Shown: in pieces, positions 120 to 18,419 of the stretch | Layout: each line of letters starts with the position of its first letter | Numbering within the stretch: the first letter of the stretch is position 1 | Origin: Galliscardovia ingluviei | GTDB taxonomy: Bacteria > Actinomycetota > Actinomycetes > Actinomycetales > Bifidobacteriaceae | Direction: 5' to 3' | Length of the DNA stretch: 24,000 nucleotides | Assembly (NCBI RefSeq): GCF_014635685.1 | Contig: NZ_BMDH01000006.1 | Span: 48,318-72,317 of the forward strand | Made by a program: the position numbers and the translations under genes | Notes under the pieces: generated by a model | What the model was told of the DNA's origin: nothing | Database searches by the model: none | What the model saw: only the letters and a program-made list of their open reading frames with translations

Positions 120-476
120 ATGCAGCAAACATGCGACATCTGCCTCCAAACACTCAATATCACGCAAACGCCACTCCTCGCCTACTACAAGAAAACCATG
201 CGCAACGGGAAAACAGCAGTCAGCTGCAAAAAAATCTGCCCTCAGTGCGCCACCAGTCACACCACAGGAGACAACCCCGACTACATCAACCCCGCGTGCA
301 GCCAATGCGGAACCCCATTCGACAAGCACGTGTTCGCAACAAGCCTATGGGACAGCAGTAAAGAATGGCAGCCCGACAACGGGTTCTTCCACATCATTTT
401 CACCCGCAACGCGCAATGGCGCATCAACAGCATGAAAAACGTCACCTGCAATAAGTGCGCCACACGACAACAGTAA
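120..476 (+). CDS. Cys-rich small protein with several CxxC pairs (zinc-ribbon-like)
   Basis: 118-aa ORF with AAAGGA 6 nt upstream of the ATG. CxxC pairs present: CDIC, CPQC, CSQC, CNKC. Confidence 0.6.
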   Translation: MQQTCDICLQTLNITQTPLLAYYKKTMRNGKTAVSCKKICPQCATSHTTGDNPDYINPACSQCGTPFDKHVFATSLWDSSKEWQPDNGFFHIIFTRNAQWRINSMKNVTCNKCATRQQ

Positions 477-492
477 AAAGGAAACAATCATC

Positions 493-702
493 ATGAGTAT
501 CACCACCATCGGCAACTATCCGACAAACGCTACCTGCGCGGCAAGCCACTGCAATAACAGCGTGGACGCGGAAAAAATCTACGACAGTGTAGAAGAGTTC
601 ACCGCCATGCTCCGCGCCCACGGATGGCAGGCAACCCCATACGAACAATACTGCCCCGTACACGCCTACACAAAACCGTCAAAACGGAAGCGGGGTGCAT
701 GA
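493..702 (+). CDS. small hypothetical protein (69 aa)
   Basis: AAGGA lies about 10 nt upstream. The stop TGA overlaps the next gene's start in ATGATG at 699-704. Confidence 0.5.
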   Translation: MSITTIGNYPTNATCAASHCNNSVDAEKIYDSVEEFTAMLRAHGWQATPYEQYCPVHAYTKPSKRKRGA

Positions 703-1157
703 TGCACGCGATACTACAAGCCAGACTAATCCAACTCGCAACCAGCACCCAACAGCATCGGGCACACGTAACCCAAACCGAAAACCGGGTGCGCAAACTC
801 AAAACCCAACTCGACCGGGCGGAACAAGTCACGGAAATAGAAACGCTCGCACGACAGCTTACGCAAGCGATAAGCAAACTACGAACCCTCAACAGCAAAC
901 TCAACCAAGAGCAAGCAGCATATGAGCGAACATGGGACATAGCGGACAAGCTCACCGAAGAAATCAGCCTCCCGACAACAGCAGCATGTGCGTGGAACAT
1001 TAACGGAACACAGTGTGAAAAGCCAACCGTAGACAACAGTAGATACTGCAAGCAGCACGCCTATCGTTGGTGTAAACAATGCCAACTCCACCATGCTACA
1101 GGAGGCAACAGTCCGCGTGCTCAATTGTGTGACCGGTGCAGAAAGGAGCAGCAGTGA
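699..1157 (+). CDS. coiled-coil protein with a C-terminal Cys-rich domain
   Basis: The ATG at 699 overlaps the previous stop. The listed 624 start would overlap the 493..702 gene in another frame. The N-terminal half is heptad-like and Q/L/R-rich. The C-terminus carries CEKP..YCKQH..CKQC..CDRC. Confidence 0.6.
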   Translation: MMHAILQARLIQLATSTQQHRAHVTQTENRVRKLKTQLDRAEQVTEIETLARQLTQAISKLRTLNSKLNQEQAAYERTWDIADKLTEEISLPTTAACAWNINGTQCEKPTVDNSRYCKQHAYRWCKQCQLHHATGGNSPRAQLCDRCRKEQQ

Positions 1158-1492
1158 ACGCGCAAACCATGCTCACTACGGTGTGCGACCAAATGGAAGC
1201 CTACCAGCTTGACCATGACGGTGAACACGTGAACACTACCGTTATCGCCATACTCAAATACGTGGAATCGCAAGACGAGAACACGAGTATCGTGGAAGCG
1301 TTACCAGACCTACAAACCGTGTACACGATGATACGGCGTATCGAAACGAACCTACTACACACTAGTGATTGGGAAGCTATTTTTTGGGAGTGGCTGTTCT
1401 ACGGGCTGCGCGATAACGAGTGTTTGCGTATGAGCTTGGCGCAACTCATGATAGTGCAGCAAATCGTGTTCAATAACGAGGAGGTGGAGTAG
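1154..1492 (+). CDS. hypothetical protein, local family A (MEAYQ..FW)
   Basis: GTG 1154 overlaps the upstream TGA (GTGA), with AAGGAG 5 nt upstream. It is a paralogue of 1492..1803, sharing MEAYQ.(D/E)HD near the N-terminus and (A/I)FW(Q/E).L(Y/F) later. ATG 1169 is an alternative start. Confidence 0.6.
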   Translation: MNAQTMLTTVCDQMEAYQLDHDGEHVNTTVIAILKYVESQDENTSIVEALPDLQTVYTMIRRIETNLLHTSDWEAIFWEWLFYGLRDNECLRMSLAQLMIVQQIVFNNEEVE

Positions 1493-1803
1493 TGTACGGA
1501 CTGCCACAACCAGTGGAGGCAAGCATAAAACTCATGGAAGCCTACCAGTCGGAGCACGACCCGAATACTCTACAGCAGGCGGTGCGAGAGCTGGAATCCT
1601 ACACGCAAACACGGGAAGCAGAAGAACCCATCATAAGCCAGCTTGGCGTGCAGCAAGCTACGGAACTCTACCAGCGGATAGCGGGCAACATTAACCGAAC
1701 CAGCGGAACGGAACAAGCATTTTGGCAGAACCTGTATATTGGAATACGATACACGGAATACGTGCCATACGCGCTCAAACAACTCCACAAACTGCAACCG
1801 TGA
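1492..1803 (+). CDS. hypothetical protein, local family A
   Basis: GTG 1492 shares a base with the upstream TAG. GAGGAGGTGGAG lies just upstream. Paralogue of 1154..1492. Confidence 0.6.
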   Translation: MYGLPQPVEASIKLMEAYQSEHDPNTLQQAVRELESYTQTREAEEPIISQLGVQQATELYQRIAGNINRTSGTEQAFWQNLYIGIRYTEYVPYALKQLHKLQP

Positions 1804-1813
1804 ACTCTACTCA

Positions 1814-1869
1814 TGCGGCAGTCAATGCGAAAACTAGCCCCACAGTGCACTACAGCATAGTATTAAAAC
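1814..1869 (+). promoter_or_regulatory. repeated promoter cassette, copy 1
   Basis: TGCGGCAG 1814-1821, AAACTAG 1831-1837, CTACAGCA then TAGTAT 1858-1863 followed by TAAAAC. The box1-to-hexamer gap is 36 nt. A G-poor leader and AGGAG precede ATG 1909. Confidence 0.55.
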
Positions 1870-1908
1870 TACACACGCAAACAGGTACACGCACGTTAGG
1901 AGCACATC

Positions 1909-2486: not shown

Positions 2487-2520
2487 GTGGCTAGTAGAAA
2501 CGGCTAGCCACTACTGTTTT
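2487..2520 (+). terminator. intrinsic-terminator-like hairpin
   Basis: GTGGCTAG (2487-2494) pairs with CTAGCCAC (2504-2511) around a 9-nt loop. TACTGTTTT follows. Confidence 0.5.
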
Positions 2521-2575
2521 GCGGCAGCCAGTAGAGAAACTAGTACCCATCATGTTTACAGCCTAGTATTAAAAC
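2520..2575 (+). promoter_or_regulatory. repeated promoter cassette, copy 2
   Basis: TGCGGCAG 2520-2527, AAACTAG 2537-2543, TTACAGCC then TAGTAT 2564-2569 followed by TAAAAC. The gap is 36 nt. The leader TATACACAAACAAAGTTACACGCAAATAAGGAGC runs to ATG 2617. Confidence 0.55.
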
Positions 2576-2616
2576 TATACACAAACAAAGTTACACGCAA
2601 ATAAGGAGCAGGAATC

Positions 2617-3027
2617 ATGACCTACAAGATTGACACTATCCTCATGCAGACCATGCGCGCGCTCGACCGTAACATTCCACGAGGCTACAACTATGGTGTG
2701 GAAATCAATGAGGAAATGAGCACCAACACCACAACCTACTATCGTATTGAGATAGAAAAACGCTTGTCTGAAAACTACACTGCTAGAGCACTCATTAACT
2801 ATGACGTGACCAATAAGCGCGTAGAATCCGTGTCTTTTGTAAACCATCGTCTACACCAACGCGACTGGTATGGTGGCGTGCGAATCCTCAGGGGCAGTAA
2901 AAAGCTCACGTTGCGTCACGCTTTGCAGCTCATGCCTGAAAGCATACTGCTACTTGACGCTAAGCAGGCGTGTGAAGCGAATGACTTGTATGTGGATATG
3001 CTGCGCGCTGAACGTAATTATCTCTAA
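2617..3027 (+). CDS. hypothetical protein, local family F
   Basis: AAGGAGC RBS. The C-terminal part LTLRHALQLMPESILLLD and the terminal AERNYL are shared with 3442, 10708, 11543 and 6169. Confidence 0.65.
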   Translation: MTYKIDTILMQTMRALDRNIPRGYNYGVEINEEMSTNTTTYYRIEIEKRLSENYTARALINYDVTNKRVESVSFVNHRLHQRDWYGGVRILRGSKKLTLRHALQLMPESILLLDAKQACEANDLYVDMLRAERNYL

Positions 3028-3062: not shown

Positions 3063-3350
3063 ATGGAAAAGGATGGCAGGAAAGCGAAATTCCTAAGAAA
3101 ATACTATGGTCGCGGGTTTGACGCTCACATGGTCTATCTCGATTACTTGTATCGTGGACATGAATACACGGTGTATGAGAATCGAGCCCGAGGCAATGAG
3201 CCGTTAGCGTGGCAACATCGTTCCGCACAGGCGCGGATAGACATGCTAATCGAGGAAGAGAATAGACCGAAGAAACCGTACCGGTACGAGGATTCAGCTG
3301 ACGCCGGTTTCGACCTATTCTGGCGACTCGTTGAGGGTGATGAGGAGTGA
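3063..3350 (+). CDS. hypothetical protein (95 aa)
   Basis: GAAGGAGGAA RBS 7 nt upstream. The composition is basic then acidic. I do not recognise a family. Confidence 0.65.
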   Translation: MEKDGRKAKFLRKYYGRGFDAHMVYLDYLYRGHEYTVYENRARGNEPLAWQHRSAQARIDMLIEEENRPKKPYRYEDSADAGFDLFWRLVEGDEE

Positions 3351-3441: not shown

Positions 3442-3858
3442 ATGGAAACCACAATGATAAGCACTATGCTGAATGCCGTGCAGGATACGCTCAATTGTGA
3501 GGCGGAACGCTTACTGCGCCCTTATGTGTCTGACGATTACGAAATTACCGCGGAATTTTACGGAGACGAATTTTACAGCATTGATTCCATTAAAATCACG
3601 GTGATTCACCGTGACGATAATGGCGTGCGCGATGTGACATTGATAGCGGACGCGGAGAGAAACTATCTCATCAATAGCGCGAACGTAACCTATTTCAGGC
3701 ACGGATACGGCAACCGTAAAGGCTGGAAGAACCCGAAAACCACCCTAGAGCATATCGCGCCACGTATTCGTGAAGCGTTACGCTGGCTGGAGGCAGGCGA
3801 CACGGAACAAGCAAGCGCATACCTCGCGGGATTAACTCATTCCACATACACCAATTAA
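3442..3858 (+). CDS. hypothetical protein, local family F
   Basis: AAAGGA lies upstream. It contains AERNYL and TTLEHIAPRIREALRWLE, matching the family F motif. ATG 3454 is an alternative start. Confidence 0.6.
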   Translation: METTMISTMLNAVQDTLNCEAERLLRPYVSDDYEITAEFYGDEFYSIDSIKITVIHRDDNGVRDVTLIADAERNYLINSANVTYFRHGYGNRKGWKNPKTTLEHIAPRIREALRWLEAGDTEQASAYLAGLTHSTYTN

Positions 3859-3869
3859 GGAGCACCATC

Positions 3870-4376
3870 ATGCAATACACTATTTTTAGAGACCACAATG
3901 TCACGGTAGTGCATGTCACCACAGCGGACGATAAGAGCGTGCACGACCGTGAACATATTTGCGCTGGCTTTTATCTTACAGAAGATGATTATAAGACGAT
4001 TGCTCGCGAGTTCGGTATCCCTGTCGATAACGTTAATGATTTTATCGATATCATTAAAAATTGCATGGTGAAAACCGAAGAACACTACCAGTGCGAATGG
4101 TTTCCCAACAACGCCATTGAAGGCTACGACATTCGCTGCCGCTACGCGGTTGTATGGGCAGGTAAACTCACTGAGCGTGCTCTTCTTTTCATAACTGTGA
4201 AGGATAGGAAAATGTGCCTCTACGACAATGCGGAAGCGCAACGTTTAGTAGACGAGGACAGTTTAAGACGCGCTCAAGCACGATACCAGTCTGAGCTTTA
4301 TGAAGCGGAGTTGGAACAGCAAGCGCTCGATGACGCTTTTTGGGGCGAATGTCACCGGTCTGTTCGTGAGGCTTAA
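3870..4376 (+). CDS. hypothetical protein (168 aa)
   Basis: AAGGAGC RBS 7 nt upstream, only 11 nt after the previous stop. Confidence 0.65.
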   Translation: MQYTIFRDHNVTVVHVTTADDKSVHDREHICAGFYLTEDDYKTIAREFGIPVDNVNDFIDIIKNCMVKTEEHYQCEWFPNNAIEGYDIRCRYAVVWAGKLTERALLFITVKDRKMCLYDNAEAQRLVDEDSLRRAQARYQSELYEAELEQQALDDAFWGECHRSVREA

Positions 4377-4473
4377 CTGGAGCGGATTTCCCAAGCGGAG
4401 CGAGTGAAGAAAGAGCGTGAAGAGCTTGAAGAGAATCAACGGTTGTCCCATCATCTTTTTTGAGGAGGTCATC

Positions 4474-4851
4474 ATGAGAGCAGTTCAGCCAAAAATTGTC
4501 ATCGCTAAAATTCAGCGTCAATACTGGAACGCCATCGCACGAGGTGAAAAAACGCTTGAAATACGCGATGAATACATTCCTGCGCAATACATGGTGTTCA
4601 CTGACCTAGAGGGCGAGCGTGTGTATGGTGTTTGTCGAGTTAAGGGTATTACTACGCTGTCTGCCGGTTTGGTTGAGCTGCCTATTGGTGCTTGTTGTAC
4701 GGTTGCACAGTTGGCTGCGTGTTACCCTCATGCGGTAGATGAGGGGTGTACGGTTCGTCCGTTGTATGCGTATAGTGTTGAGCTACTATCTTGCGAGGCA
4801 GTGTTTACGAGGGTTATGCGAGAAAGCTCGGGATTTTTAATCCCGAGATGA
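4474..4851 (+). CDS. ASCH-like (PUA-fold) domain protein
   Basis: GAGGAGG lies 6 nt upstream of ATG 4474, so the listed 4417 start is an extension. The N-terminus IAKIQRQYWNAIARGEKTLEIRDEY matches the ASCH pattern (x..I..G.KT.E.R). The call rests on motif memory, not a search. A strong hairpin sits at the 3' end, CTCGGGAT 4827-4834 pairing with ATCCCGAG 4840-4847. Confidence 0.55.
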   Translation: MRAVQPKIVIAKIQRQYWNAIARGEKTLEIRDEYIPAQYMVFTDLEGERVYGVCRVKGITTLSAGLVELPIGACCTVAQLAACYPHAVDEGCTVRPLYAYSVELLSCEAVFTRVMRESSGFLIPR

Positions 4852-4910
4852 ATCACGCGGGACGCATGAACTACAAATAGCAACAGTCAATCGAAAAAAA
4901 GGAATACATT

Positions 4911-5579
4911 ATGAATACATGGATTATTCTCGCAGACGGCTCAGCGTCAAACAGTGATGGCACTACGTTGAGCGCTGAACAAGTAGAAGAGCTTGCTACA
5001 AACTATTTCGAGCGGTACGGCGAACCAAAACCAAAAGGGAATGGATACTACATCACACGGCACGGCGAACTCATTAAAAAAGTATGGAGAGGTGGCTGGG
5101 AGCATTACGACCTTGATAAGCAGGATTATACTGTATGGGCTACAGGTGAGGAAGAGACCCTAGATTGGAATGTTGTGCTCCAAGAGTTCGGTAAGGATGC
5201 CTTCCCAGTAAAGCGAGTTACTAAACCGATGCTCGCTAATCTTGCGCAATCCCCAACGGAAAAATGGACTATTCGCACAGACGGGGCAACACAATCCGGT
5301 GACAGTATTACGTTGAACGCTGAGCAAACACGAGCATTTATGCTTGCAACCTTGGAACAGTTTTTTGATGAACCAAAAGAGAAGGCGCCTTATGCCGCGC
5401 GCAATGGCGACCTACTGTGGAAAATCAGAGATGGTTATTGGTATCGTTTTACTTTTGAAGACTCTGGAGACTATCACTACATTGAAGATGGAAATTGGGA
5501 GGACATGCTGGAATCGTACGCGAGAGATGATTTGCCAGTGAAAAAACTGAGCAAACAGCTTTTCGCCAACCTTGTTTAA
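4911..5579 (+). CDS. acidic W/Y-rich repeat protein, local family C (internal 2x duplication)
   Basis: The two halves align: W(I/T)I..DG...S....TL.AEQ ... G.L..K...G.W ... (F/L)PVK(R/K)..K..(L/F)ANL. The module is shared with 6896..7978. Confidence 0.7.
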   Translation: MNTWIILADGSASNSDGTTLSAEQVEELATNYFERYGEPKPKGNGYYITRHGELIKKVWRGGWEHYDLDKQDYTVWATGEEETLDWNVVLQEFGKDAFPVKRVTKPMLANLAQSPTEKWTIRTDGATQSGDSITLNAEQTRAFMLATLEQFFDEPKEKAPYAARNGDLLWKIRDGYWYRFTFEDSGDYHYIEDGNWEDMLESYARDDLPVKKLSKQLFANLV

Positions 5580-5605
5580 TTCCGTAATAAGATTCAAGAT
5601 TACAG

Positions 5606-5661
5606 TGCGGCAACCAGCAAGAGAACATGACACTGTAATGCTCCACAGCCTACAATAAAAG
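5606..5661 (+). promoter_or_regulatory. repeated promoter cassette, copy 3
   Basis: TGCGGCAA 5606-5613, then CTCCACAGCC and TACAAT 5651-5656 followed by AAAAGC. The gap is 37 nt. The inverted repeat ATTACAGTG 5599-5607 / CACTGTAAT 5631-5639 overlaps it. The leader ATACACAAACACGCAAAGTAAGGAGT follows. Confidence 0.5.
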
Positions 5662-5693
5662 CATACACAAACACGCAAAGTAAGGAGTACACC

Positions 5694-6086
5694 ATGTCTG
5701 TTGCAATCGTAGGTAACACAGGAATTAACGCTATCGCTCACGCTGCAAGTTCGTTTATCTATGAGTATGGACAATTTCTCTCAACGGAAGAAAAACTGCC
5801 GATAACAACGTTTGATATTACAACTATTGGGCAGTACCTGTATCAGCGCAATATGGATGCTTTTAACCAGCGCTATTGCGGGGATAATCCTGCCCCACAG
5901 TTCAAGCCGTATTATAGCGATGATATTTCACCAGTATTCACGCTTGCCGCTATCGATGCTTACCTCTATCAAGTGTCCGACTTGTATGATGATAAACTCA
6001 CTTATCTGCTCACACAGGCACGCTTGTATACCATCGAAACAATGGACGGATATGACGAAGCATGGCGACAAGCCATGAGTAACTAG
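5694..6086 (+). CDS. hypothetical protein, local family B
   Basis: AAGGAGT RBS. Paralogue of 9898..10242, sharing MSVAI(V/L)GN.GI..IA.AA, LYQRN(M/I)DA(F/W)N, AY.YQV.DL.D and DGYD(E/D)AW. Confidence 0.7.
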   Translation: MSVAIVGNTGINAIAHAASSFIYEYGQFLSTEEKLPITTFDITTIGQYLYQRNMDAFNQRYCGDNPAPQFKPYYSDDISPVFTLAAIDAYLYQVSDLYDDKLTYLLTQARLYTIETMDGYDEAWRQAMSN

Positions 6087-6092
6087 TCTACA

Positions 6093-6124
6093 AGCGCTCG
6101 TATTGTTCGGGCGCTTTCTTTTTT
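6093..6124 (+). terminator. Rho-independent terminator
   Basis: AGCGCTCG (6093-6100) pairs with CGGGCGCT (6108-6115), with one G.U pair and a 7-nt loop. TTCTTTTTTT follows. Confidence 0.75.
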
Positions 6125-6168: not shown

Positions 6169-6858
6169 ATGGAACTGAAACAACAACTTGAACAAGTAGC
6201 AACACCAATGTTCACCACATTCAAACTCAACGTGCGCACAAAAGACGGTATCACTTATGCGAACATTGAAGGCAGTATATCAAACGCTAAAAACCCACGA
6301 ATCGTGATAAACCTAGAAGTAGACGCGGGCAAACAGCTTATCAAATCGGTAAAAATATACGCGACCGACAATAGTAACGCTTTTTTCCCATGGAACATGT
6401 ACACGTGGAACGAACCCATATATGACAAGTGTCAAATACTACCCATATACAACAAGTATCGAATACTGCCTGTAGAGACATGCTTGCAACTATTACCCGA
6501 AGTTGTGCGCCATGCAAGCGCCAACCAACACGGCGCGGAACAGTCACTCTACGAAGCGTCCAAACACGTTGAAACAACCCTTCTAACATTTATCAACATG
6601 GTAGAGCATTGCGCGTCAAACGGAGAGCAAGTACACGTCTTAGATGTCAGCAAACAGGACGGAGTTTTCCGCATAGTCGTACAACCACCATACGAACAGT
6701 TCGACCGGTTTTTTCACACCACTTTGTTTGAAATCAACGTCAGTACGCTCACCCTACAGCGGGTTGCAACAAGAAGTATTAAAGGCTACTCGTCTGCACC
6801 GCACAACCTGCCACTCACTGCTATCCCGCCGGACGCGCTACGCGGACTTCTAACCTAG
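6169..6858 (+). CDS. hypothetical protein related to family F (two family-F-like halves)
   Basis: AAGGGGA RBS. LPVETCLQLLPEVVRHA mid-protein and LPLTAIPPDALRGLL at the C-terminus resemble the family F motif. It contains a 27-nt tandem duplication (6415-6441 / 6442-6468). Confidence 0.65.
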   Translation: MELKQQLEQVATPMFTTFKLNVRTKDGITYANIEGSISNAKNPRIVINLEVDAGKQLIKSVKIYATDNSNAFFPWNMYTWNEPIYDKCQILPIYNKYRILPVETCLQLLPEVVRHASANQHGAEQSLYEASKHVETTLLTFINMVEHCASNGEQVHVLDVSKQDGVFRIVVQPPYEQFDRFFHTTLFEINVSTLTLQRVATRSIKGYSSAPHNLPLTAIPPDALRGLLT

Positions 6859-6895
6859 AAGCATTCGCCCATGCCCCTATGGAAAGGAAAAACCC

Positions 6896-7978: not shown

Positions 7979-7980
7979 CC

Positions 7981-8418: not shown

Positions 8419-8437
8419 CAGGCTCACAGCGCATGTT

Positions 8438-8493: not shown

Positions 8494-8524
8494 GTACACG
8501 TAAACACGTTAAGGAGTACCCGCC

Positions 8525-8932: not shown

Positions 8933-8945
8933 TCATGCTCACGTT

Positions 8946-10600: not shown

Positions 10601-10613
10601 CCGTTGTAACCTT

Positions 10614-10669
10614 TGCGGCTAGGGCTCACGAAAGTAGCTCTAGCCACACTCAAAGCCTATTATCGAAAC
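10614..10669 (+). promoter_or_regulatory. repeated promoter cassette, copy 7
   Basis: TGCGGCTA 10614-10621, AAAGTAG 10631-10637, CTCAAAGCC then TATTAT 10658-10663. The gap is 36 nt. An imperfect hairpin (GCTAGgGCT / AGCtCTAGC) spans the middle box. Confidence 0.5.
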
Positions 10670-10707
10670 ATAAACAAAGAAAACACACAGGACAAGGGGC
10701 AAACATC

Positions 10708-11139: not shown

Positions 11140-11431
11140 CAACATGCTCAACGAAGCATTTCAAAGTGTGAGCGCGGACAGCAACTACTACCTTTATGCC
11201 ATGCGCGACCTACTGAAATACTTAGAATACGACCCGCAGTGCACAAAAAGTGAACTATGCGATTGGCTGTATCTTATTAACGAAGAAACATGGAGAAACA
11301 ACTATCAGACGCTCATACAGCCAGCCGTACACTTCGGGCTTATTGAACGGCAGGTGAACGCAGAGGATACCCGATATTCGGTTTCACCACTCGGAGAGCT
11401 GGTATTGCGCGTACTTAAACAATACTGTTAG
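11132..11431 (+). CDS. hypothetical protein, local family E (NYYLY..R.LL)
   Basis: TTG 11132 overlaps the upstream stop. An in-frame ATG at 11144 is the alternative start. It shares NYYLY(A/S)(M/V)R(D/Q)LL with the disrupted gene at 11998. Confidence 0.55.
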   Translation: MNSNMLNEAFQSVSADSNYYLYAMRDLLKYLEYDPQCTKSELCDWLYLINEETWRNNYQTLIQPAVHFGLIERQVNAEDTRYSVSPLGELVLRVLKQYC

Positions 11432-11462
11432 CGGAGCAGTGTGCCCCATGCTCCTTACAGCG

Positions 11463-11519
11463 TGCGGCAGGTAAGCAGTGAACTCGCGCCCACCATGTGC
11501 CACAGCATACAATAAAACC
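11463..11519 (+). promoter_or_regulatory. repeated promoter cassette, copy 8
   Basis: TGCGGCAG 11463-11470, GAACTCG 11480-11486, CACCATGTGCCACAGCA then TACAAT 11508-11513 followed by AAAAC. The gap is 37 nt. The leader is CGTACAAAGTAAGGAGC. Confidence 0.55.
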
Positions 11520-11542
11520 GTACAAAGTAAGGAGCATACATT

Positions 11543-11893
11543 ATGAGCACGTGGGAACACAACATCGAACAACAAGTACACGCCACACTAGACGCACACC
11601 TTCCAGAAAACTACCAGTATGAGCTTAAAACGCGAACATGCGGAACAGGAACACTCGTAATCAGAAACCACAACAACACTAACTGTATTGAACTGTATTT
11701 TGAAGCAATAAGCATTAACGAAAATCTTGTAGACAGCTATGTGCTCGCCGAAGGAAACAACGTCCATTCGGCAGTAGCTAGAGCAATCCCACTCACGGAC
11801 GCATTGAACGCCATACCAGCCACGCTCCAGCAGCTTGACAAGCACGGTATCAATAGCGCACTCAAAGAGTTCAGGTACAGGACACAAGGCTAA
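11543..11893 (+). CDS. hypothetical protein, local family F
   Basis: AAGGAGC RBS. IPLTDALNAIPATLQQLDKHG matches the family F motif. Confidence 0.7.
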   Translation: MSTWEHNIEQQVHATLDAHLPENYQYELKTRTCGTGTLVIRNHNNTNCIELYFEAISINENLVDSYVLAEGNNVHSAVARAIPLTDALNAIPATLQQLDKHGINSALKEFRYRTQG

Positions 11894-11904
11894 CAACAGC
11901 ATAA

Positions 11905-11961
11905 TGCAGCTGGTGTGCAGCAAACTAGTAGCATACTAGCCTCACAGCATACAATAGAACC
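11905..11961 (+). promoter_or_regulatory. repeated promoter cassette, copy 9
   Basis: TGCAGCTG 11905-11912, AAACTAG 11922-11928, CTCACAGCA then TACAAT 11950-11955. The gap is 37 nt. Confidence 0.5.
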
Positions 11962-11997
11962 GTACAAAACAGTTACACTCATTTTAAGGAGCAAACA

Positions 11998-12297
11998 ATG
12001 GCATACATGCAATTTAAGGGACTACCAGCAACACGAGTATCATTCGAGAACCACACAGATATTGCATTCTCAAGCAACATTTTCATTCAACGCTTTATCC
12101 ACGAGCTCATTGATAGTGAAACTATCCTCACACGTCTCACAGCTCTCACAGTGCAAAACGTGAGAGATTGGGAAGATTGCTATTTAGAGTTTGAACATCT
12201 TTGCACCATGATTGAACTGCATAACAGCTACTACAGTCAGCAAATCAGGGAAGAAATTAACTACTACCTGTATAGCGTGCGTCAATTACTTCGGTGA
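11998..12297 (+). pseudogene. 5' part of a family E gene truncated by the IS insertion
   Basis: AAGGAGC RBS. The frame reads ...EEINYYLYSVRQLL and then runs into IS end sequence (R*). The matching C-terminal frame resumes at about 13639. Confidence 0.55.
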
Positions 12298-12480
12298 CGA
12301 GCACCGGAGCTTGTCCCTGCCCGGCAGTGATAGCGGAAAAGATTTTTCCTCCTGCTTTTTGTTCCCTTTGAGGGGTGGCGGAACATCTAAGGGGTGATTG
12401 ACTGCACCCCGCCCAAGTTCAGAGCTTGTCCGACTGGGATTCAACGAGTTGCATATAGCCGATTCGTTGAATGTTCATAG
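12292..12480 (-). ncRNA. candidate omega RNA (reRNA) scaffold of TnpB
   Basis: In characterised TnpB systems the guide RNA derives from the tnpB 3' end plus the right end. Here that region holds the hairpins GGGGTG/CACCCC 12391-12410, GGAAAA/TTTTCC 12335-12349 and CGGTG/CACCG 12292-12306. A 10-nt direct repeat GAGCTTGTCC occurs at 12307-12316 and 12422-12431. The extent is not determined. Confidence 0.4.
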
Positions 12481-13543
12481 CTGCTACACGGTCGTCATTT
12501 GACTGGTATGAGCAGTTTGCACACCGGTATTCGTGCATACGCTTATTACGGTTTGTTTTACAAACCATCCCGCATCGAGGGCATGTTTGACTGGTGTATT
12601 TAGGGTCAATGGCTATGCAAGTGTGCCCATGCTGTTTTGCCTTGTACTCTATCATGGTGCGCAATTGATAATATGCCCAACTAACTTGCACATACCTGTC
12701 GCGTTTACGTACTTTTTGTGTGGCTTGCCGAATTCCGGTAAGGTTTTCCAGTACAAAGAGTGTGGGCTCAGCTTGTTGGCTGATAAGTGCCTGAGATACT
12801 TGATGGTTAATGTCTCGCATCCAACGGTTTTCTCTCTTGCCAATAGCTTGTAGCTTGCGTCTTGCACTGCGCGTACCTTTCTTCTGCAATTGAGCACGTA
12901 ACGTCTTGTAGTGTGCGCGTTTATTACTCACCTCCTTTCCGCTAAAGAACGTGGTATGACCGTCACTATCGTATGCGGTAGCGAGGAATCGTAATCCCAT
13001 GTCAATACCGACTATTTGCTGAGGCTGTTTTGGTTCAGAAATGGTTATGGTACTTGGGATAAGTAGTAGCCACTTGTTGTTTCTTTGTAAGATTCGCGCT
13101 GTACCAAACTTACCGTGTCGATACGGTTGAGGCATGTGTGACCAGTCTACTGTGAATTTGACGCGACCTTGTAGCGTGTTAATGCTGATTCTACCGTCTT
13201 TGAGTACACTGTAGTCACGGTTGTATACGAGGTCGTATCCCATAGTGTGGTAGTGGGGGTGCTTACCATGCCATGAACTGCCGTGGAGTTCTGCAATAGT
13301 TCGGTAGTTGCCGATAACGCGGATAATGGCGGACTGAGCCATTTGAGCGCCTACATGATACTCTTCGCGCAGTTTATGATAGGTGAGCTTGTTAAGTTTC
13401 TTTTGACTGATTGTCCGCTGCTGGTATGCGGTGTCGCTTACCGTGTTGCAACATGAGAGAAAAGCTGTACACGTGTCAGTGAGGAGCTGTGTTTCTTGCA
13501 TAGTGGTGTGTAAGCGCACTGCATACGTGAGTGTGTTCAGCAT
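12419..13543 (-). CDS. tnpB: TnpB (IS605 OrfB family RNA-guided RuvC nuclease)
   Basis: RuvC-like motifs IVGIDMGLRF, FVLENLTGI and NDDRVAAMNIQ are present, with the zinc ribbon CPRCG...CANC between the last two. The preferred start is ATG 13543 (MLNTLTYAVRLH...), preceded by GGAGGTG. The listed TTG 13570 start is less likely. Confidence 0.85.
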   Translation of the reverse strand: MLNTLTYAVRLHTTMQETQLLTDTCTAFLSCCNTVSDTAYQQRTISQKKLNKLTYHKLREEYHVGAQMAQSAIIRVIGNYRTIAELHGSSWHGKHPHYHTMGYDLVYNRDYSVLKDGRISINTLQGRVKFTVDWSHMPQPYRHGKFGTARILQRNNKWLLLIPSTITISEPKQPQQIVGIDMGLRFLATAYDSDGHTTFFSGKEVSNKRAHYKTLRAQLQKKGTRSARRKLQAIGKRENRWMRDINHQVSQALISQQAEPTLFVLENLTGIRQATQKVRKRDRYVQVSWAYYQLRTMIEYKAKQHGHTCIAIDPKYTSQTCPRCGMVCKTNRNKRMHEYRCANCSYQSNDDRVAAMNIQRIGYMQLVESQSDKL

Positions 13544-13581
13544 GTGCGGCACCTCCACAAAAACTTTCAATAACAGTAAAA

Positions 13582-13590
13582 ATTATAGCA
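13582..13590 (-). promoter_or_regulatory. extended -10 (TGCTATAAT) for tnpB
   Basis: The reverse complement of 13582-13590 reads TGCTATAAT, about 38 nt upstream of ATG 13543. Confidence 0.45.
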
Positions 13591-13638
13591 TACTATTGAA
13601 AAGAAAGGAAGGCGTTCCTCCCTAGCCACAAGGGCTAA

Positions 13639-13809
13639 GGTATCCACGCTAATAACAATCATGAAGCTATCGACGATATTGAAAACACGGAAATGCTACT
13701 CGCCATCTACATGGCACTCAAAGGGTTCTCCAAGAACGAGAAAGTAGTGTACAAGCGACCAAGCGAACCAGACGAATATTCTACGAGCCTATCAAGGTTC
13801 TTCGCCTAA
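13639..13809 (+). pseudogene. 3' part of the IS-disrupted family E gene
   Basis: An open frame GIHANNNHEAIDDIENTEMLLAIYMALKGFSKNEKVVYKRPSEPDEYSTSLSRFFA* begins right after the IS end, with no start codon or RBS of its own. Its tail weakly resembles the C-terminus of 11132..11431. Confidence 0.45.
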
Positions 13810-13820
13810 CATTCAAGGGG

Positions 13821-13906: not shown

Positions 13907-14179
13907 GTGAAAAACAAGTACAAAATCGAAGTTGTATTTAACATGCTCAACCAGCTACCACAAGAACAAAAAGCCTACATGTACAGTGTCCTTGCAGCAC
14001 TATGGTTGGACTTGTCGGCAATAGTGCGCTCAATACGCGAACAAAAGGACGAAGCAAGCGCAAAAGCCTTAACCGACTACGTTTTCTATATCCTCGATAC
14101 CGTGGATGCGAAGCAAGCACAAGCCGCTATTCATGCTCATCGCCAAAAATTAGAGGAGACAACCGTTGAGCAACGTTAA
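13907..14179 (+). CDS. hypothetical protein (90 aa)
   Basis: GTG 13907 lies 8 nt after AAGGAGC. The listed 13820 start would span the promoter-like region. Confidence 0.5.
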   Translation: MKNKYKIEVVFNMLNQLPQEQKAYMYSVLAALWLDLSAIVRSIREQKDEASAKALTDYVFYILDTVDAKQAQAAIHAHRQKLEETTVEQR

Positions 14180-14573
14180 AGCCAGCCAAATAGCCACACT
14201 GAAAGCAACAATCTACCATAAGGACGGTTTCGCAAGCTACGAGTGGGACACCACGCCACAGAAGCTCATAGCCTACTTGCAGGAGCGCATACACGGCGAA
14301 CCGCCACTCATTCTCGAAGCGTTACCATTTGGCACGCCAGCATTACAGCGCCTAGCGCAACAATATTGTAAGCTATACAAGCCAACAATCCCGCTAGAAG
14401 AACGCCAACCAGTTGAACAGCGCATACAGTGCGAACTAGAAAAACTCATAGACGAGCCGATAGAAATACTCTGCCAACTAGCCACCTTGTGCGAATGGGA
14501 AGAACCCGACTTGGAACAGTGGACAGGTACGCTTACGGACGGGCAAACTATTGTAATTAACACTAGCATGTAG
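14166..14573 (+). CDS. hypothetical protein, local family D
   Basis: TTG start after AGAGGAGAC, overlapping the upstream gene by 14 nt. It is a paralogue of 14674..15120 (DEPI(E/T)ILC.LAT..E...PD.E.WTG.L..G..I). Confidence 0.6.
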   Translation: MSNVKASQIATLKATIYHKDGFASYEWDTTPQKLIAYLQERIHGEPPLILEALPFGTPALQRLAQQYCKLYKPTIPLEERQPVEQRIQCELEKLIDEPIEILCQLATLCEWEEPDLEQWTGTLTDGQTIVINTSM

Positions 14574-14587
14574 CGCGACATCACTTC

Positions 14588-14643
14588 TGCGGTAGTCGCT
14601 TTTGAAACTAGCCCCACCTTGTCTCACAGCATAGAATCTAATC
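14588..14643 (+). promoter_or_regulatory. repeated promoter cassette, copy 10
   Basis: TGCGGTAG 14588-14595, AAACTAG 14605-14611, CCCCACCTTGTCTCACAGCA then TAGAAT 14632-14637. The gap is 36 nt. Confidence 0.55.
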
Positions 14644-14673
14644 ATAAGCAAAAACACAAGGAAGGAATACACA

Positions 14674-15120
14674 GTGAACACTATTATTGCCAATCAAGTA
14701 TCTACCCTCACTTGCACACGAGTAGAAGATAGCGACACCTTTGAAACCACAGTGCCAGACCTCATTGATTACATGCAATTCCGCGCGACTAATAGTCCAG
14801 ACCTCATACACGATGAGCTCTACCACTATGGTGGTGAAATGTTCAAAGAACTCACCGAACAGTATCGAGCACTGTACAAGAAGGCAAACGCCGACCCTGT
14901 AGAAACCCCAGTACTACCAGCACCATACAGGCAACAGCAACAGCAGTTAGAACAGCAGATTATAGACAAGTTCACCAGCCTTGCAGACGAGCCTATCACC
15001 ATCTTGTGCTGTCTCGCTACGGTGTTCGAGTATCGAGACCCAGACGAAGAATCATGGACTGGTGTACTCAACAACGGGCACGAAATCATTATCGACATTC
15101 TTAAAATGCGCGTGCTCTAA
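14674..15120 (+). CDS. hypothetical protein, local family D
   Basis: GTG start after GGAAGGAA. Paralogue of 14166..14573. Confidence 0.65.
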   Translation: MNTIIANQVSTLTCTRVEDSDTFETTVPDLIDYMQFRATNSPDLIHDELYHYGGEMFKELTEQYRALYKKANADPVETPVLPAPYRQQQQQLEQQIIDKFTSLADEPITILCCLATVFEYRDPDEESWTGVLNNGHEIIIDILKMRVL

Positions 15121-15194: not shown

Positions 15195-15569
15195 ATGAAC
15201 GACACAACCATCAACTTCACCATCACCATGAGCTCACAGGATATTGTGCACAGGATAGCAGAAAAAACCCACGGCACTATCAGCTACTACAAACGCTCAT
15301 ACAAGCTCAGCGCAAAAGCACGCAAAATGCTAGAAAAAACAGAAACATACCGTAATACTGAACAGCTCATAAACGAGCTAGAAGCCACGCCATACGAGTA
15401 CATTAACCAAGAAAAAATTGAACAGTTGCGCACGCAATGCGACAGAGCGTTTTGGCGTGCAGTAACACTATTCAGCGAAATGACCCCACGGGAGCAAGCA
15501 ATCATGGTGAACATGGTTCTCAACTATCCAACAGGTAGCGAACAGGAGCACGTGCAAGCACAAGCATAA
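15195..15569 (+). CDS. hypothetical protein (124 aa)
   Basis: AGAGGAA RBS 6 nt upstream. Confidence 0.6.
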   Translation: MNDTTINFTITMSSQDIVHRIAEKTHGTISYYKRSYKLSAKARKMLEKTETYRNTEQLINELEATPYEYINQEKIEQLRTQCDRAFWRAVTLFSEMTPREQAIMVNMVLNYPTGSEQEHVQAQA

Positions 15570-15611: not shown

Positions 15612-15647
15612 ACTTCGTGCGCGTGTGAGTTTCCCGAAGCAAAGTAG

Positions 15648-15666
15648 CACAGCCTATAATTAAATC
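15648..15666 (+). promoter_or_regulatory. promoter cassette core only (copy 11)
   Basis: CACAGCC then TATAAT 15655-15660 followed by TAAATC. The upstream boxes are not conserved. A G-poor leader runs to ATG 15716. Confidence 0.45.
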
Positions 15667-15715
15667 ACACACAAACACATAAACCCCAACCAACAGTAGA
15701 AACGGAGACAACACT

Positions 15716-16276
15716 ATGAGCGACCTCGCCCGACTAGCAGGACAATTAAACGACACCACACCAACCACCACCATACAAGCCACACCAACCCCACCCAAGC
15801 AGAAGCCAGTGGAGCGGACAGTAGACACCAGTATCCCCGTCACACCACCAGCCGCCGTATACACGGACAAATGGTACTACCATTCTAATCTTGTGCAAGC
15901 AGTCACATTCCTCACGCTAGTATCCTTATTTATCATCATTGACCATCTACCTCCACAAACCAAGCCAGAAGCCAGTGAAATATACCTCATAGTAAACGGG
16001 CTCATCGCCGCCGCAGTATTCGCAGGAATCGCCTATATTGCATTCAAAGTAGTGGAAGAGTTCACAGACAGAGCGCGCAACAATCAAATACGCAAAACTC
16101 TCGAAAACGCCTACGGTCTGAAAGTCAGCCACGTGCTACGCACCGTAGAAGGCTACACCATCACCACGCTGGAATCCGGCGGAGACAACACGTGGCATAC
16201 GAGAGACCAGCGCGTCTACGAGCATGGCACACACTTGTACTTGGGTGAAATCCTAGACGAAGGAGACAACCAGTGA
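15716..16276 (+). CDS. membrane protein with a Pro/Thr-rich N-terminus and two predicted TM helices
   Basis: ACGGAGAC RBS. Hydrophobic stretches are AVTFLTLVSLFIIIDHL and LIVNGLIAAAVFAGIAYIAF. Confidence 0.65.
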   Translation: MSDLARLAGQLNDTTPTTTIQATPTPPKQKPVERTVDTSIPVTPPAAVYTDKWYYHSNLVQAVTFLTLVSLFIIIDHLPPQTKPEASEIYLIVNGLIAAAVFAGIAYIAFKVVEEFTDRARNNQIRKTLENAYGLKVSHVLRTVEGYTITTLESGGDNTWHTRDQRVYEHGTHLYLGEILDEGDNQ

Positions 16277-16572
16277 AACAGCAACAGCCTGAAAACCTCC
16301 TCGAACAAGACGTGCAAGAATACGTGAACGAACACCCTAACGTGAGCGTTGCGGAAGCGTACAGGGACGGGCGTATCACCGACCCAACCGACCGTGAAAT
16401 CTTGGCGGCTAGCCGCTCTATCGGAAAGCATCATGCTCGCACAGTGAAGAAGAATCATGAGCCGGTATTGTACTGCCCGTCTTGTCTTGTGTTTTTTGAC
16501 AGTTGGACTGATGCGAATAAGCATGTGGTTGAGCAGTTGTTGGATGCTATGGCGTTTGAGCGGCAACTGTAG
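16273..16572 (+). CDS. small protein with a C2H2-like element (CPSC...H)
   Basis: GTG 16273 overlaps the upstream TGA (GTGA), with AAGGAG upstream. YCPSCLVFFDSWTDANKHVVE resembles a C2H2 zinc-finger-like segment. Confidence 0.55.
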   Translation: MKQQQPENLLEQDVQEYVNEHPNVSVAEAYRDGRITDPTDREILAASRSIGKHHARTVKKNHEPVLYCPSCLVFFDSWTDANKHVVEQLLDAMAFERQL

Positions 16573-16577
16573 CGTGG

Positions 16578-16635
16578 TGCGGCAGCTTGTTTTTCGGTTT
16601 TGGTTGAGCGTGGTTTCACAGCCTAGTATTACGGT
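16578..16635 (+). promoter_or_regulatory. repeated promoter cassette, copy 12 (drives the bro-ssb block)
   Basis: TGCGGCAG 16578-16585, TTTCACAGCC then TAGTAT 16624-16629. The gap is 38 nt, the middle box is not conserved, and the leader is longer (87 nt). Confidence 0.45.
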
Positions 16636-16716
16636 GCCACTTTTCAGAATCGCGTAATCAGGAGCGGAGTGTACCGCTGCCACAACGGTCGTAACAATAG
16701 TGAAAGGAACAAGATT

Positions 16717-17517
16717 ATGGAACAGAACAGTATCCAACAATACACATTCGAGAACAGTAACATTCGCACGATTGAAGAGAACGGCAATGTGTTGTTTTGC
16801 GGGAAAGATGTCGCTACAGCACTCGGATACACTAACCCAAATAAAGCAATTACAGACCATTGCCATGGGGTAACGAAACGTTACCCCATCGTAGATAGCC
16901 TTGGAAGGACACAAGAAGCACGCTTCATCACAGAAGGTGACGTATACCGTCTCATCGCATCAAGCAAACTCCCCCAAGCAGTCAAATTCGAGCACTGGCT
17001 GTTCGATGAAGTCGTACCCTCAATTCGCAAGCACGGCGCATACATGACCGAACAAACCCTCGAACAAGCACTCACCGACCCCGACTTCCTTATCAGGCTC
17101 GCAACCGAACTTAAAGAAGAAAAACAAGCCCGCCTACAAGCAGAACAAAAAATCCAAGAACTCGAACCCAAAGCCAAACTCATGGAGGACTTTATTAACC
17201 TCGACAGCACGTACAGCGTAGCCGACACCGCCAAACTCTTACGCAACGTAGGCATCAACATGGGGCAAAACCAGCTCTACCAGCAGCTCGCACAAATGCA
17301 CTGGATATTCCGGCGCGAAGGCGCGTGGAAACCCTACGAAACGCACGTGCAAGCAGGAGACTTAGCGCTCAGACCCTACACCAAGCAGGGCAAACACTCA
17401 GACGGCACACCATTCGCCTACCAACCACAGGTGCGTTTAACCGGACGCGGCATCATGCTCCTCACTGGACGGTTAAGTGAGCAGCAACTCCAGCAGGCAC
17501 TCCAAACAGCACTCTAA
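16717..17517 (+). CDS. Bro-N / KilAC-domain antirepressor-like protein
   Basis: ATG 16717 follows GAAAGGAAC. The N-terminus FENSNIRTIEENGNVLFCGKDVATALGY.NPNKAI is Bro-N-like. The C-terminus MEDFINLDSTYSVADTAKLL...GQNQLYQQL...PYETHVQAG is KilAC/ANT-like. Confidence 0.8.
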   Translation: MEQNSIQQYTFENSNIRTIEENGNVLFCGKDVATALGYTNPNKAITDHCHGVTKRYPIVDSLGRTQEARFITEGDVYRLIASSKLPQAVKFEHWLFDEVVPSIRKHGAYMTEQTLEQALTDPDFLIRLATELKEEKQARLQAEQKIQELEPKAKLMEDFINLDSTYSVADTAKLLRNVGINMGQNQLYQQLAQMHWIFRREGAWKPYETHVQAGDLALRPYTKQGKHSDGTPFAYQPQVRLTGRGIMLLTGRLSEQQLQQALQTAL

Positions 17518-17550
17518 CCAACCCACTTAGTCAAACAGAAAGTAACCATT

Positions 17551-17694
17551 GTGAGTGAAAAACAACTCAAAACCATCATCAGCCTCATTGACCAAGGGCA
17601 CAGTGACGCGGAAATCAGCCAACTCACGAACACGCAGCTCCCCGTCATCGCACAAATACGATGGGACTATAATCATAGAAAAATCAGCGTGTAG
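17551..17694 (+). CDS. possible small helix-turn-helix protein (47 aa)
   Basis: GTG start. VSEKQLKTIISLIDQGHSDAEISQLTNTQLPVIAQIRWDYNHRKISV* contains a classic HTH segment. The RBS is weak (GAAAGTAA). It competes with the 5' part of the listed 17555 ORF in another frame. Confidence 0.4.
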   Translation: MSEKQLKTIISLIDQGHSDAEISQLTNTQLPVIAQIRWDYNHRKISV

Positions 17695-17713
17695 ACGGGA
17701 GACTAAACCTACT

Positions 17714-17971
17714 ATGAGAAGCCCATGCCCACAATGCGGGTTCATACAGCTCGCTCTCACTACAAGCGGCTGGAAGTGCATGGCTTGCCAATACAAGCTA
17801 CAGACAGCAAGCCGCACACCACCAAGAACCGTAGCATGGAAGGCGCGCGCTAACAGCGGATACCTCGCCCCCGTCATCAGCTACACGAGCCCAAAACCAG
17901 CACCACCATCCTATGAGCCAACCACGAGCTCGCATCGAAAACGACACCGTAAACAACACCAACACCATTAA
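17714..17971 (+). CDS. possible zinc-ribbon protein with a low-complexity basic tail
   Basis: ATG 17714 has GGGAG 12 nt upstream. CPQCG...CMAC lies at the N-terminus. The P/S/T/H-rich tail could be a composition artefact. Confidence 0.35.
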   Translation: MRSPCPQCGFIQLALTTSGWKCMACQYKLQTASRTPPRTVAWKARANSGYLAPVISYTSPKPAPPSYEPTTSSHRKRHRKQHQHH

Positions 17972-17984
17972 GGAGAACAGTATT

Positions 17985-18419
17985 ATGGCAAACGAACCAC
18001 ACATTGAAATCACCGGATACGCTTCCAACGTGAAACACTGGCAGAACGAGCGCATCACGTTCAGCGTGGCAGTCACCCCATCATATAAAAACCAGCAAGG
18101 GCAGTGGGTGAACCAGCCGACCATGTTCTTTAACGTGTCATGCACGCGCAACGAAACCAAAAAAACGGCGCAGCAGATTGAACAGTTACTGAACAGCGGT
18201 AACGCGGTTCGCGTGCTGGTGACGGGAGCGTTCACTGAATCAGAAAACAAGCAGGGTGGCGCGGCGTTCAAGAATGTTATGCCTGACCGGATTGGTATTG
18301 TGGAATATCATCCGAAACGTAACAGTAGCGCGCCGAACGGTGGCGGTCAGCCGATGTTCCAGCAGCCGCAGTCGGCGGGCGGGCAGGCTTATGACCCTTG
18401 GTCACCTCAAGGCGTATAA
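17985..18419 (+). CDS. ssb: single-stranded DNA-binding protein
   Basis: ATG 17985 lies 9 nt after AAGGAG. The OB-fold-like N-terminus (IEITGYASNV...FSVAV...QGQWVNQPTMFFNVSC...NAVRVLVTGAF) is followed by a G/Q/P-rich tail ending in YDPWSPQGV. Confidence 0.8.
   Translation: MANEPHIEITGYASNVKHWQNERITFSVAVTPSYKNQQGQWVNQPTMFFNVSCTRNETKKTAQQIEQLLNSGNAVRVLVTGAFTESENKQGGAAFKNVMPDRIGIVEYHPKRNSSAPNGGGQPMFQQPQSAGGQAYDPWSPQGV

Follow-up and report, generated by a model that had tools for sequence, protein, structure and literature searches.

In pMP7017, a megaplasmid of Bifidobacterium breve that is conjugative by experiment (PMC10832533, PMC8313286), a conserved 34-bp motif overlaps the -10 region of 19 promoters, and the 56 genes predicted downstream represent 24% of the plasmid (Dineen et al. 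2024, PMC10832533). The motif is absent from chromosomes and was proposed to be a transcription-factor site, and its regulon includes ssb (p0198), an orphan methyltransferase gene (p0197), and genes for CRISPR-Cas, a WhiB-like protein, a DnaQ-like exonuclease, an RNA ligase and a sortase (PMC10832533). In the Bacillus plasmids p576 and pLS20, variable establishment operons are clustered by a conserved conjugation operon, each behind one copy of a regulatory sequence, which in p576 is a strong promoter that is repressed by the plasmid protein Reg576 and gives a transient burst of expression in the recipient (PMC6294495, PMC8708921). Here we describe an array of short co-directional genes at positions 120-18419 of a 24,000-nt stretch of DNA from Galliscardovia ingluviei, a bacterium of the chicken crop (contig NZ_BMDH01000006.1; hereafter the window), in which many units are preceded by copies of a conserved promoter element.

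By analogy, the array most resembles the establishment regulon of p576 and pLS20, where a conserved double-stranded-promoter sequence, EGeRS2, likewise stands before several clustered, variable operons that adjoin the conjugation operon. The role proposed for the p576/pLS20 regulons is establishment and anti-defence. However, the sequences are unrelated and the host of the window element is actinobacterial. Furthermore, no ribbon-helix-helix repressor or dual-heptamer operator was identified in the window, and ardC is absent from it. We interpret the array as an establishment or host-takeover regulon, with a probability of roughly 0.5. Transcription would start at ordinary double-stranded promoters, and the short transcription units, of which there are at least 12, would be co-controlled by a factor binding conserved boxes, in parallel to the repressor-run establishment regulon of p576. 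The products would include SSB and inhibitors of host defences that are not yet recognised as such. This interpretation is plausible because of the architecture of the array, its association with ssb and ArdC, and the precedent of the described systems.

The regulon of pMP7017 is similar to the array in that its motif overlaps with the -10 region and extends into the transcript start (-10, 7-8 nt, CACA box), recurs in front of many co-oriented units whose genes are mostly hypothetical, and has its main concentration in the arm that precedes the VirB4-like gene. In both elements, ssb is under such a promoter (the unit of copy 12 in the window, p0198 in pMP7017). The motif sequences differ, however, and only the window copies have two additional upstream boxes at fixed spacing. 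The host genus also differs, as does the G+C content, which is 55% in the pMP7017 arm and about 48% in the window. The pMP7017-type motif AWAYATGYTATACTGAATATGTCCACATAAAAWA is found in about 24 copies in pMP7017 at up to nine substitutions, of which eight sit in the arm at 56-84 kb that is syntenic with the window; the copies are spread round the whole plasmid. Promoters of the related contigs L002, L003 and L004 are of the pMP7017 type. The window gave no match to AWAYATGYTATACTGAATATGTCCACATAAAAWA, even with up to 10 substitutions allowed, nor was the window-type element matched in the relatives.

Organization of the array

Between 120 and 18419, 35 plus-strand open reading frames (ORFs) fit a tight gene model, 31 of them of at least 90 amino acids (aa) and four small. 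The products have a median length of 130 aa (range 47-360 aa), and the coding density is 0.86 with the insertion sequence (IS) excluded. The only minus-strand genes are tnpB of an IS605-family element (12419-13570) and hicAB (18493-19079, just past 18419). The array extends leftwards beyond the window, with the end of an ORF at 116-118. The original prediction, made from the DNA letters, had described about 40 short, mostly unrecognisable genes on one strand except for the IS and hicAB; the strand, the lengths and the scarcity of recognisable products agree with our results, while the number of genes was slightly overcounted.

Searches of the window proteins against Pfam, PHROGs, NCBIfam and PADLOC recognised four array products only, which are among the types that had been named beforehand. 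The ASCH match (4417-4851) is borderline, with 21.1 bits against a cut-off of 21.2. The DUF3310 match (8525-8932) has an E-value of 7e-7, and the Bro-N and KilAC/ANT matches of the protein at 16669-17517 have E-values of 6e-23 and 2e-18. The SSB (17913-18419) is divergent, with a Pfam score of 22.7 bits that is under the cut-off and matches to TIGR00621 (E 3e-5) and PHROG 44 (E 2e-6). PADLOC matches to PbeC, DndD, JetC and LmuB (E 5e-4 to 1e-2) were disregarded, as they look like non-specific matches to long SMC-like coiled-coil models, perhaps made by the coiled-coil protein at 699-1157. About 20 of the array products are acidic (isoelectric point < 5.6). The very acidic repeat proteins that had been noted in the sequence are the 360-aa protein at 6896-7978, which has a net charge of -37 and three repeat units, and the protein at 4911-5579, which contains two related units.

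The coding strand is A/C-rich across the window (1-24000), with an A-T skew of up to +0.49 and a G-C skew down to -0.30 per kb, and Gln, Thr and Asn are abundant in the products. For the minus-strand genes tnpB and hicAB, too, it is the coding strand that shows the bias of A>T and C>G. Because it tracks the coding strand on both strands, the skew is a codon-usage trait, and its interpretation as a signature of the transferred strand was rejected on the same grounds.

A repeated promoter element precedes 12 units

Reading of the intergenic regions revealed a conserved element of ~65 nt in front of 12 units, with 12/12 copies on the plus strand. The order is TTTGCGGCAG (box A) - N~10 - GAAACTAGC (box B) - N~17 - CACAGC(A/C)TAnnAT(A/T)AAA(A/G)C.(R)TACACA, followed on the 3' side by an unstructured A/C-rich leader and then AAGGAG 6-9 nt ahead of the start codon. 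The -10 TAnnAT is bordered by conserved CACAGC and AAAAC..TACACA, and boxes A (TTTGCGGCAG, about -56) and B (GAAACTAG, about -38) are present in 8-9 copies. The 12-nt core ACAGCMTANNAT occurs 10 times compared to an expectation of 0.13, a number that was reached by no shuffle, and box A (TGCGG) is found eight times at a fixed distance of 44-45 nt from the -10 (0.01 expected). A leave-one-out search with nhmmer recovered 12/12 copies, nine at E <= 7e-6 and three at E 0.008-0.018, and gave 0 matches on the minus strand. The original prediction had spoken of separately promoted units, for which these statistics make a stronger case than was first put.

A scan with the canonical sigma-70 consensus detects 1/12 elements and misses the other 11 because their -35 is non-canonical; copy 3 alone has a good -35 (ATGACA, 18-nt spacer, TACAAT). 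No copy of the element is present in related and phage loci that amount to about 0.6 Mb. A pattern scan of metagenomes for it gave two unrelated matches, which were attributed to chance. Promoter-bearing repeats upstream of several leading-region genes, the CUP repeats, were reportedly described by Delver and Belogurov in 1997 in the IncN plasmid pKM101, where they are said to be under plasmid repressors. The CUP repeats are several hundred bp long, belong to Proteobacteria hosts and serve a regulon with known ard genes, and the window elements are unlike them in these points.

Boxes A and B are, judged by their conservation, candidate operators. In three copies, a short perfect inverted repeat has box B or its CTAG core in its loop or arms (8454-8461, 10620-10648, 11925-11940), one example being CATTGAGG-AAACTAG-CCTCAATG at 8446-8468; the other promoter copies are without such a repeat. 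The inverted repeat around box B might be an operator variant. Two ORFs between the Bro/KilAC gene and ssb were both skipped by gene callers. The first (17551-17694, 47 aa) looks helix-turn-helix-like by eye, although the domain searches recognised none, and its product is a candidate regulator; HicB and the Bro-N protein are further candidates for the factor that would bind the boxes. The second (17715-17971), which overlaps with the annotated start of ssb, encodes a zinc ribbon of the CxxC...CxxC type.

The array shares small unidirectional genes, ssb, a toxin-antitoxin pair nearby and adjacent transfer machinery with the leading-region islands of conjugative elements (Samuel et al. 2024, PMC11541004). 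If it were a true leading-region island as in F and ColIb, it would enter the recipient first and be transcribed from hairpin promoters on the incoming single strand, and the strict unidirectionality of the genes, with ssb among them, and their orientation toward the conjugation and coupling-protein genes are consistent with this. By analogy with Tn916-type elements, oriT, the origin of transfer, might lie near these genes. However, RNAalifold found 0 consensus pairs among the 12 copies, and when folded as single-stranded DNA they have no common structure and mostly unremarkable z-scores (+1.2 to -2.3). Rfam has no match in the window. Because consensus pairing is lacking, the single-stranded folds are not consistently stable and the Rfam search was empty, the elements are best described from their sequence as ordinary duplex promoters with conserved flanking boxes rather than hairpin promoters of the Frpo type, and the idea of single-strand hairpin promoters was rejected. 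The window thus differs from the described islands, as it has no hairpin promoters of the Frpo/ssi type and no catalogued anti-defence family. Together with a skew that reflects codon usage rather than the transferred strand, and with no oriT or relaxase recognised in the window, this makes a leading-region island of the F type very unlikely.

The array is part of a conjugative element of the pMP7017 family

Six window proteins are identical to the G. ingluviei entries GGI15454-GGI15464, which are encoded on a contig of 92,946 bp, and a Logan contig (L001) is 98% identical to the window from 13851 on and adds 8.9 kb at the right. The array had been predicted to lie next to a type IV secretion system, and genes for a VirB4-like AAA_10 ATPase (20284-22872) and a CHAP hydrolase (22820-23980) are indeed found downstream of it. 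The ATPase (862 aa) is 47% identical to that of pMP7017 and 46% to those of five Bifidobacterium longum megaplasmids. The gene order ATPase - CHAP - FtsK/SpoIIIE pair is conserved with pMP7017, and the two proteins of the coupling-protein (FtsK/SpoIIIE) pair are 37% and 48% identical to their counterparts. The next protein, of 725 aa, has a weak match to its pMP7017 counterpart (25% over 146 aa). Overall, the conjugation backbone is syntenic with that of pMP7017 and 37-50% identical, and the pMP7017 arm upstream of the ATPase gene (about 55-85 kb) is also a long co-directional run of mostly hypothetical genes. By synteny and sequence identity, the element belongs to the Bifidobacterium pMP7017 family of conjugative megaplasmids, for which the host genus is new, and the array region is a variable accessory arm of such a megaplasmid, or of an integrated element, in G. 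ingluviei.

The first gene of the conjugation operon (19224-20282) encodes a nuclease with a GmrSD_C/DUF1524 domain that is 43% identical to a DUF1524 protein of pMP7017, and its stop codon is placed one base ahead of the ATPase start codon. Inspection by eye suggests an N-terminal signal peptide, a low-complexity linker and a C-terminal LAQTG with a membrane anchor. Motifs of the LAQTG type are of the kind recognised by class E sortases. The transfer operon would then include a surface-anchored nuclease.

The RepA protein of pMP7017 is conserved but dispensable for replication; its binding sites are eight direct repeats next to the coupling-protein gene (PMC8313286). The intergenic region between repA and the coupling-protein gene of pMP7017 also has a 35-bp palindrome. 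At the syntenic position, the Galliscardovia element (L001 10269-11263, compared with pMP7017 96166-97895) encodes a membrane protein of 238 aa that is unrelated and lacks a Pfam match. A RepB replicase with an iteron origin is another mark of the family; the replication region falls beyond the window and L001. A TTTTGCGTGCAAAA palindrome is present upstream of the coupling-protein gene in L001. The RepA-repeat region of pMP7017, or its Galliscardovia counterpart with the TTTTGCGTGCAAAA palindrome, could be a candidate for oriT.

In a comparison with P0007, P0010, P0020 and the plasmid hits H2-H6, many of the ATPase relatives in Bifidobacterium have lengths of 1350-1450 aa, and their alignment to the 862-aa window protein falls into two parts; one of the long relatives is annotated as a LAGLIDADG homing endonuclease. 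This sequence pattern suggests that an intein is inserted in the conjugation ATPase of these relatives. The Galliscardovia ATPase is without an insertion of this type.

The cargo is variable and related to phage early genes

A concatenated query of 27 unknown array proteins gave 0 matches among 72,556 plasmids. Likewise, no array protein was matched by tblastn in pMP7017 and the relatives L003-L008, where just the nuclease, the ATPase and the CHAP hydrolase have matches. The array genes are unshared with the pMP7017 relatives except for the DUF3310 protein, which has a tblastn match in the related contig L002. When the unknown array proteins were searched against 50,697 phages, the single match was obtained for 3063-3350, whose product shares 65% identity with gp26 of Bifidobacterium phage BP1. 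The gp26 gene is the terminal gene of an early arm that also has genes for a methyltransferase, an SSB and a DNA polymerase.

Three array families recur in the genomes of phages or in contigs that resemble phages, and for two of the three the site is an early region. The family of 5694-6086 and 9898-10242, with proteins of ~130 aa, has 276 representatives at E<=1e-3 in a profile search of 1.84 billion proteins, but no Pfam family and no relative in PDB. The closest relative of the 5694 protein (52% identical) comes from L012, a phage-like contig of 36.5 kb that has a terminase and a G+C content of 48%; the gene of this relative belongs to the early region and follows a Cro-like gene. The same contig carries a 28%-identical homologue of the ASCH-like protein (4417-4851) on the opposite strand, ~4 kb from the gene of the 5694 family. 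The structure model of 4911-5579 is poor, with a predicted local distance difference test (pLDDT) score of 61, and was not good enough for a search. When five more proteins and one family profile were searched by sequence against PDB, no meaningful match was obtained.

Several array genes are paralogues of each other. The families comprise 1136, 1492 and the C-terminus of 8525; 4911 and 6896; 5694 and 9898; and 14166 and 14674 (first positions of the genes), in addition to two weaker groups. A wider family (2617, 3442, 10708, 11543, 7981) had E-values of about 0.01-0.1 in the set of 36 proteins and is not claimed. The paralogue families and the phage homologues indicate that the array grows by local duplication and phage exchange. 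As far as can be read from these comparisons, the turnover of the cargo is fast and involves local duplication (four to six paralogue families) and exchange with phages of the host clade and with sibling megaplasmids.

The Bro/ANT, DUF3310, ASCH and SSB genes are of phage-typical types, and with homologues in phage BP1 and the terminase-bearing contig L012, and sibling contigs that are filed as viral in IMG/VR, the array might be taken for the early region of a prophage or phage-plasmid instead of a plasmid establishment module. However, no virion, terminase, lysis, capsid or tail genes were found in the window or its right flank, which contain conjugation genes instead. Moreover, the array is contiguous with the VirB4/CHAP/FtsK system that is syntenic with the experimentally conjugative pMP7017. 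We consider a phage early region to be improbable.

ArdC is encoded in sibling arrays

Homologues of the 3063-3350 protein with 60-69% identity are encoded by 26 IMG/VR contigs, most of which are 105-217 kb long. Co-oriented promoter motifs of the pMP7017 type are found at 21/26 of these loci, and some of the contigs (L014-L037, 105-217 kb) have tnpB or exonuclease segments similar to pMP7017. From these features, the contigs are most likely bifidobacterial megaplasmids filed as viruses. In seven contigs, ArdC (ArdcN with E 4e-12, and Peptidase_M78) is encoded 0.5-3 kb downstream of the 3063-3350 homologue, on the same strand and in arrays of motif promoters. In L026, a motif promoter stands upstream of the homologue and ardC, for which co-transcription is plausible. 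Although ardC is not in this window, a bona fide anti-restriction family thus belongs to the homologous sibling arrays, as judged from these gene neighbourhoods.

An establishment regulon or a general plasmid regulon

The original prediction of an establishment or anti-defence island is partly supported, namely by the setting in a conjugative element, the variable cargo resembling phage early genes, the multi-operon regulon behind one repeated regulatory sequence, and the position of ardC after a homologue of an array gene in the sibling contigs. A known anti-defence family in the window, on the other hand, did not emerge. In agreement with an earlier statement, the profile searches gave no match to the ArdA, Ocr, KlcA/ArdB or PsiB families at E <= 0.01 among the window proteins, and no other known anti-defence family, methyltransferases included, was found there with the four libraries.

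Several further observations weigh against the interpretation as an establishment regulon. No relaxase or oriT was recognised, whether in the window, its right flank of 8.9 kb or the plasmid relatives; 17/17 plasmid relatives were typed as non-mobilizable, and neither oriT nor a relaxase is mentioned in the pMP7017 papers (PMC10832533, PMC8313286). The structure model of 5694-6086, a five-helix bundle with a pLDDT of 74.5, gave no functional lead, as its best PDB match has an E-value of 0.29 and the two other matches are uncharacterised viral proteins. In pMP7017, genes behind six of the motif promoters are highly expressed when established transconjugants are in log phase (PMC10832533). Because these promoters are active in established cells and the regulon is functionally mixed, it is not purely an entry arsenal. 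The interpretation is weakened by the lack of known anti-defence genes in the window, by the steady-state activity of the pMP7017 promoters and by the lack of a recognisable oriT or relaxase from which the transfer polarity would follow.

The activity in log-phase carriers, the functional mixture of genes that account for 24% of the plasmid (PMC10832533) and the distribution of the motif copies round the whole of pMP7017 would also fit a general plasmid-specific regulon, in which a standard strong promoter, perhaps read by a plasmid factor, drives accessory and maintenance genes constitutively and has no link to entry. Consistent with this, the promoter of the conjugation operon has its -10 core (AGCCTAGTATTAAAGC) in common with the array promoters, and the promoter of the coupling-protein gene (L001 11047-11078) also shares the -10 core. 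Part of the promoter conservation may therefore represent the general promoter type of the element. However, boxes A and B, which accompany 8-9 of the array promoters, are absent from the conjugation-operon promoter, and the coupling-protein promoter only has a box-A-like sequence at a different spacing. This confinement of the boxes to the array promoters indicates a control layer that is specific to the array. Furthermore, the cargo is acidic, duplicated, fast-evolving and similar to phage early genes, unlike maintenance genes, and ArdC and ssb are present in the homologous arrays. A general regulon is a possible but rather unlikely explanation of the array.

The establishment regulon that we favour can also be formulated in a more far-reaching way. 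The array might then represent an arsenal of 30-plus genes for new anti-defence and host-takeover proteins that is induced on entry, when the plasmid repressor is lacking (zygotic induction), via the cassette of boxes A/B and -10/CACA, in Bifidobacteriaceae megaplasmids that conjugate without a recognisable relaxase. We consider this formulation doubtful.

Coordinates of the features

The features of the window are listed in Table 1. The IS605-family TnpB (383 aa) matches the Pfam families OrfB_IS605 and Cas12f1-like_TNB. The IS splits the array and is followed by the remnant of a C-terminal gene part at 13662-13810, and the alignment of L001 begins about 200 bp past the IS. Several tnpB copies are present in the related elements.

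Table 1. Features of the Galliscardovia ingluviei window, with positions counted from its first nucleotide.
Feature	Position	Strand	Remarks
First visible block	120-1803	+	Five ORFs
Cys-rich zinc-ribbon protein	120-476	+	
Small ORF	493-702	+	
Coiled-coil protein, C-terminus Cys-rich	about 699-1157	+	
Two paralogues	1136-1492, 1492-1803	+	Related to the C-terminal half of the DUF3310 protein
Promoter copy 1	1812-1869	+	-10 TAGTAT at 1858; drives 1909-2466; terminator-like hairpin 2485-2513
Promoter copy 2	2517-2578	+	Drives 2617-3027 and 3063-3350
95-aa protein	3063-3350	+	Homologous to phage BP1 gp26
Unit without the repeated element	3442-5579	+	Unknowns 3442-3858, 3870-4376, 4911-5579 and ASCH-like 4417-4851
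Acidic two-repeat protein	4911-5579	+	
Promoter copy 3	5605-5665	+	Drives 5694-6086; terminator 6092-6116
130-aa acidic protein, predicted helical bundle	5694-6086	+	Paralogue of 9898-10242
Three-gene unit	6169-8418	+	Includes 6896-7978, paralogue of 4911-5579
Promoter copy 4	8435-8496	+	Drives DUF3310 gene 8525-8932
Promoter copy 5	8943-9004	+	Drives 9020-9379 and about 9423-9776
Promoter copy 6	9805-9866	+	Drives 9898-10242; terminator 10269-10294
Promoter copy 7, weaker match	10612-10672	+	Drives 10708-11139 and 11132-11431
Promoter copy 8	11461-11522	+	Drives 11543-11893
Promoter copy 9	11904-11964	+	Drives 11998-12297
IS605-family element, tnpB only (12419-13570)	12298-13650	-	Outside the array proper
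Two genes	13910-14573	+	90 aa; 135 aa (14166-14573, paralogue of 14674-15120)
Promoter copy 10	14586-14646	+	Drives 14674-15120
124-aa unknown gene	15195-15569	+	Hairpin upstream, no repeated element
Promoter copy 11, just the -10 core conserved	15624-15669	+	Drives membrane protein gene 15716-16276 and 16273-16572
Promoter copy 12, box A and -10 core	16577-16632	+	Drives Bro-N/KilAC 16669-17517, 17551-17694, 17715-17971, ssb (17913/17985-18419)
hicB-hicA toxin-antitoxin pair	18493-19079	-	Between array and conjugation operon
Conjugation-operon promoter	19142-19168	+	
Conjugation backbone	19224-23980	+	GmrSD_C/DUF1524 nuclease, VirB4-like ATPase, CHAP hydrolase

Implications for the megaplasmid family

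Roughly 10% of screened gut microbiome samples, largely those of infants and mothers, are reported to contain megaplasmids of the pMP7017 family, as are about 11% of Bifidobacterium longum strains (PMC10832533). While a motif regulon of the pMP7017 type was already known, the promoter cassette of the Galliscardovia element is a version of its own, and nearly all of the cargo of this element is unshared and phage-related. The regulon of promoter motifs is thus a conserved design of the family, which reaches a distant genus with a diverged motif sequence. Many large IMG/VR contigs filed as viral are probably plasmids of this family. For Actinomycetota, this offers a mining rule in which genes behind a family-specific promoter are candidate establishment or anti-defence genes. 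If the array is indeed an arsenal, the repeated promoter would be a search handle for anti-defence genes across the megaplasmid family, including the IMG/VR contigs that are now filed as viruses.

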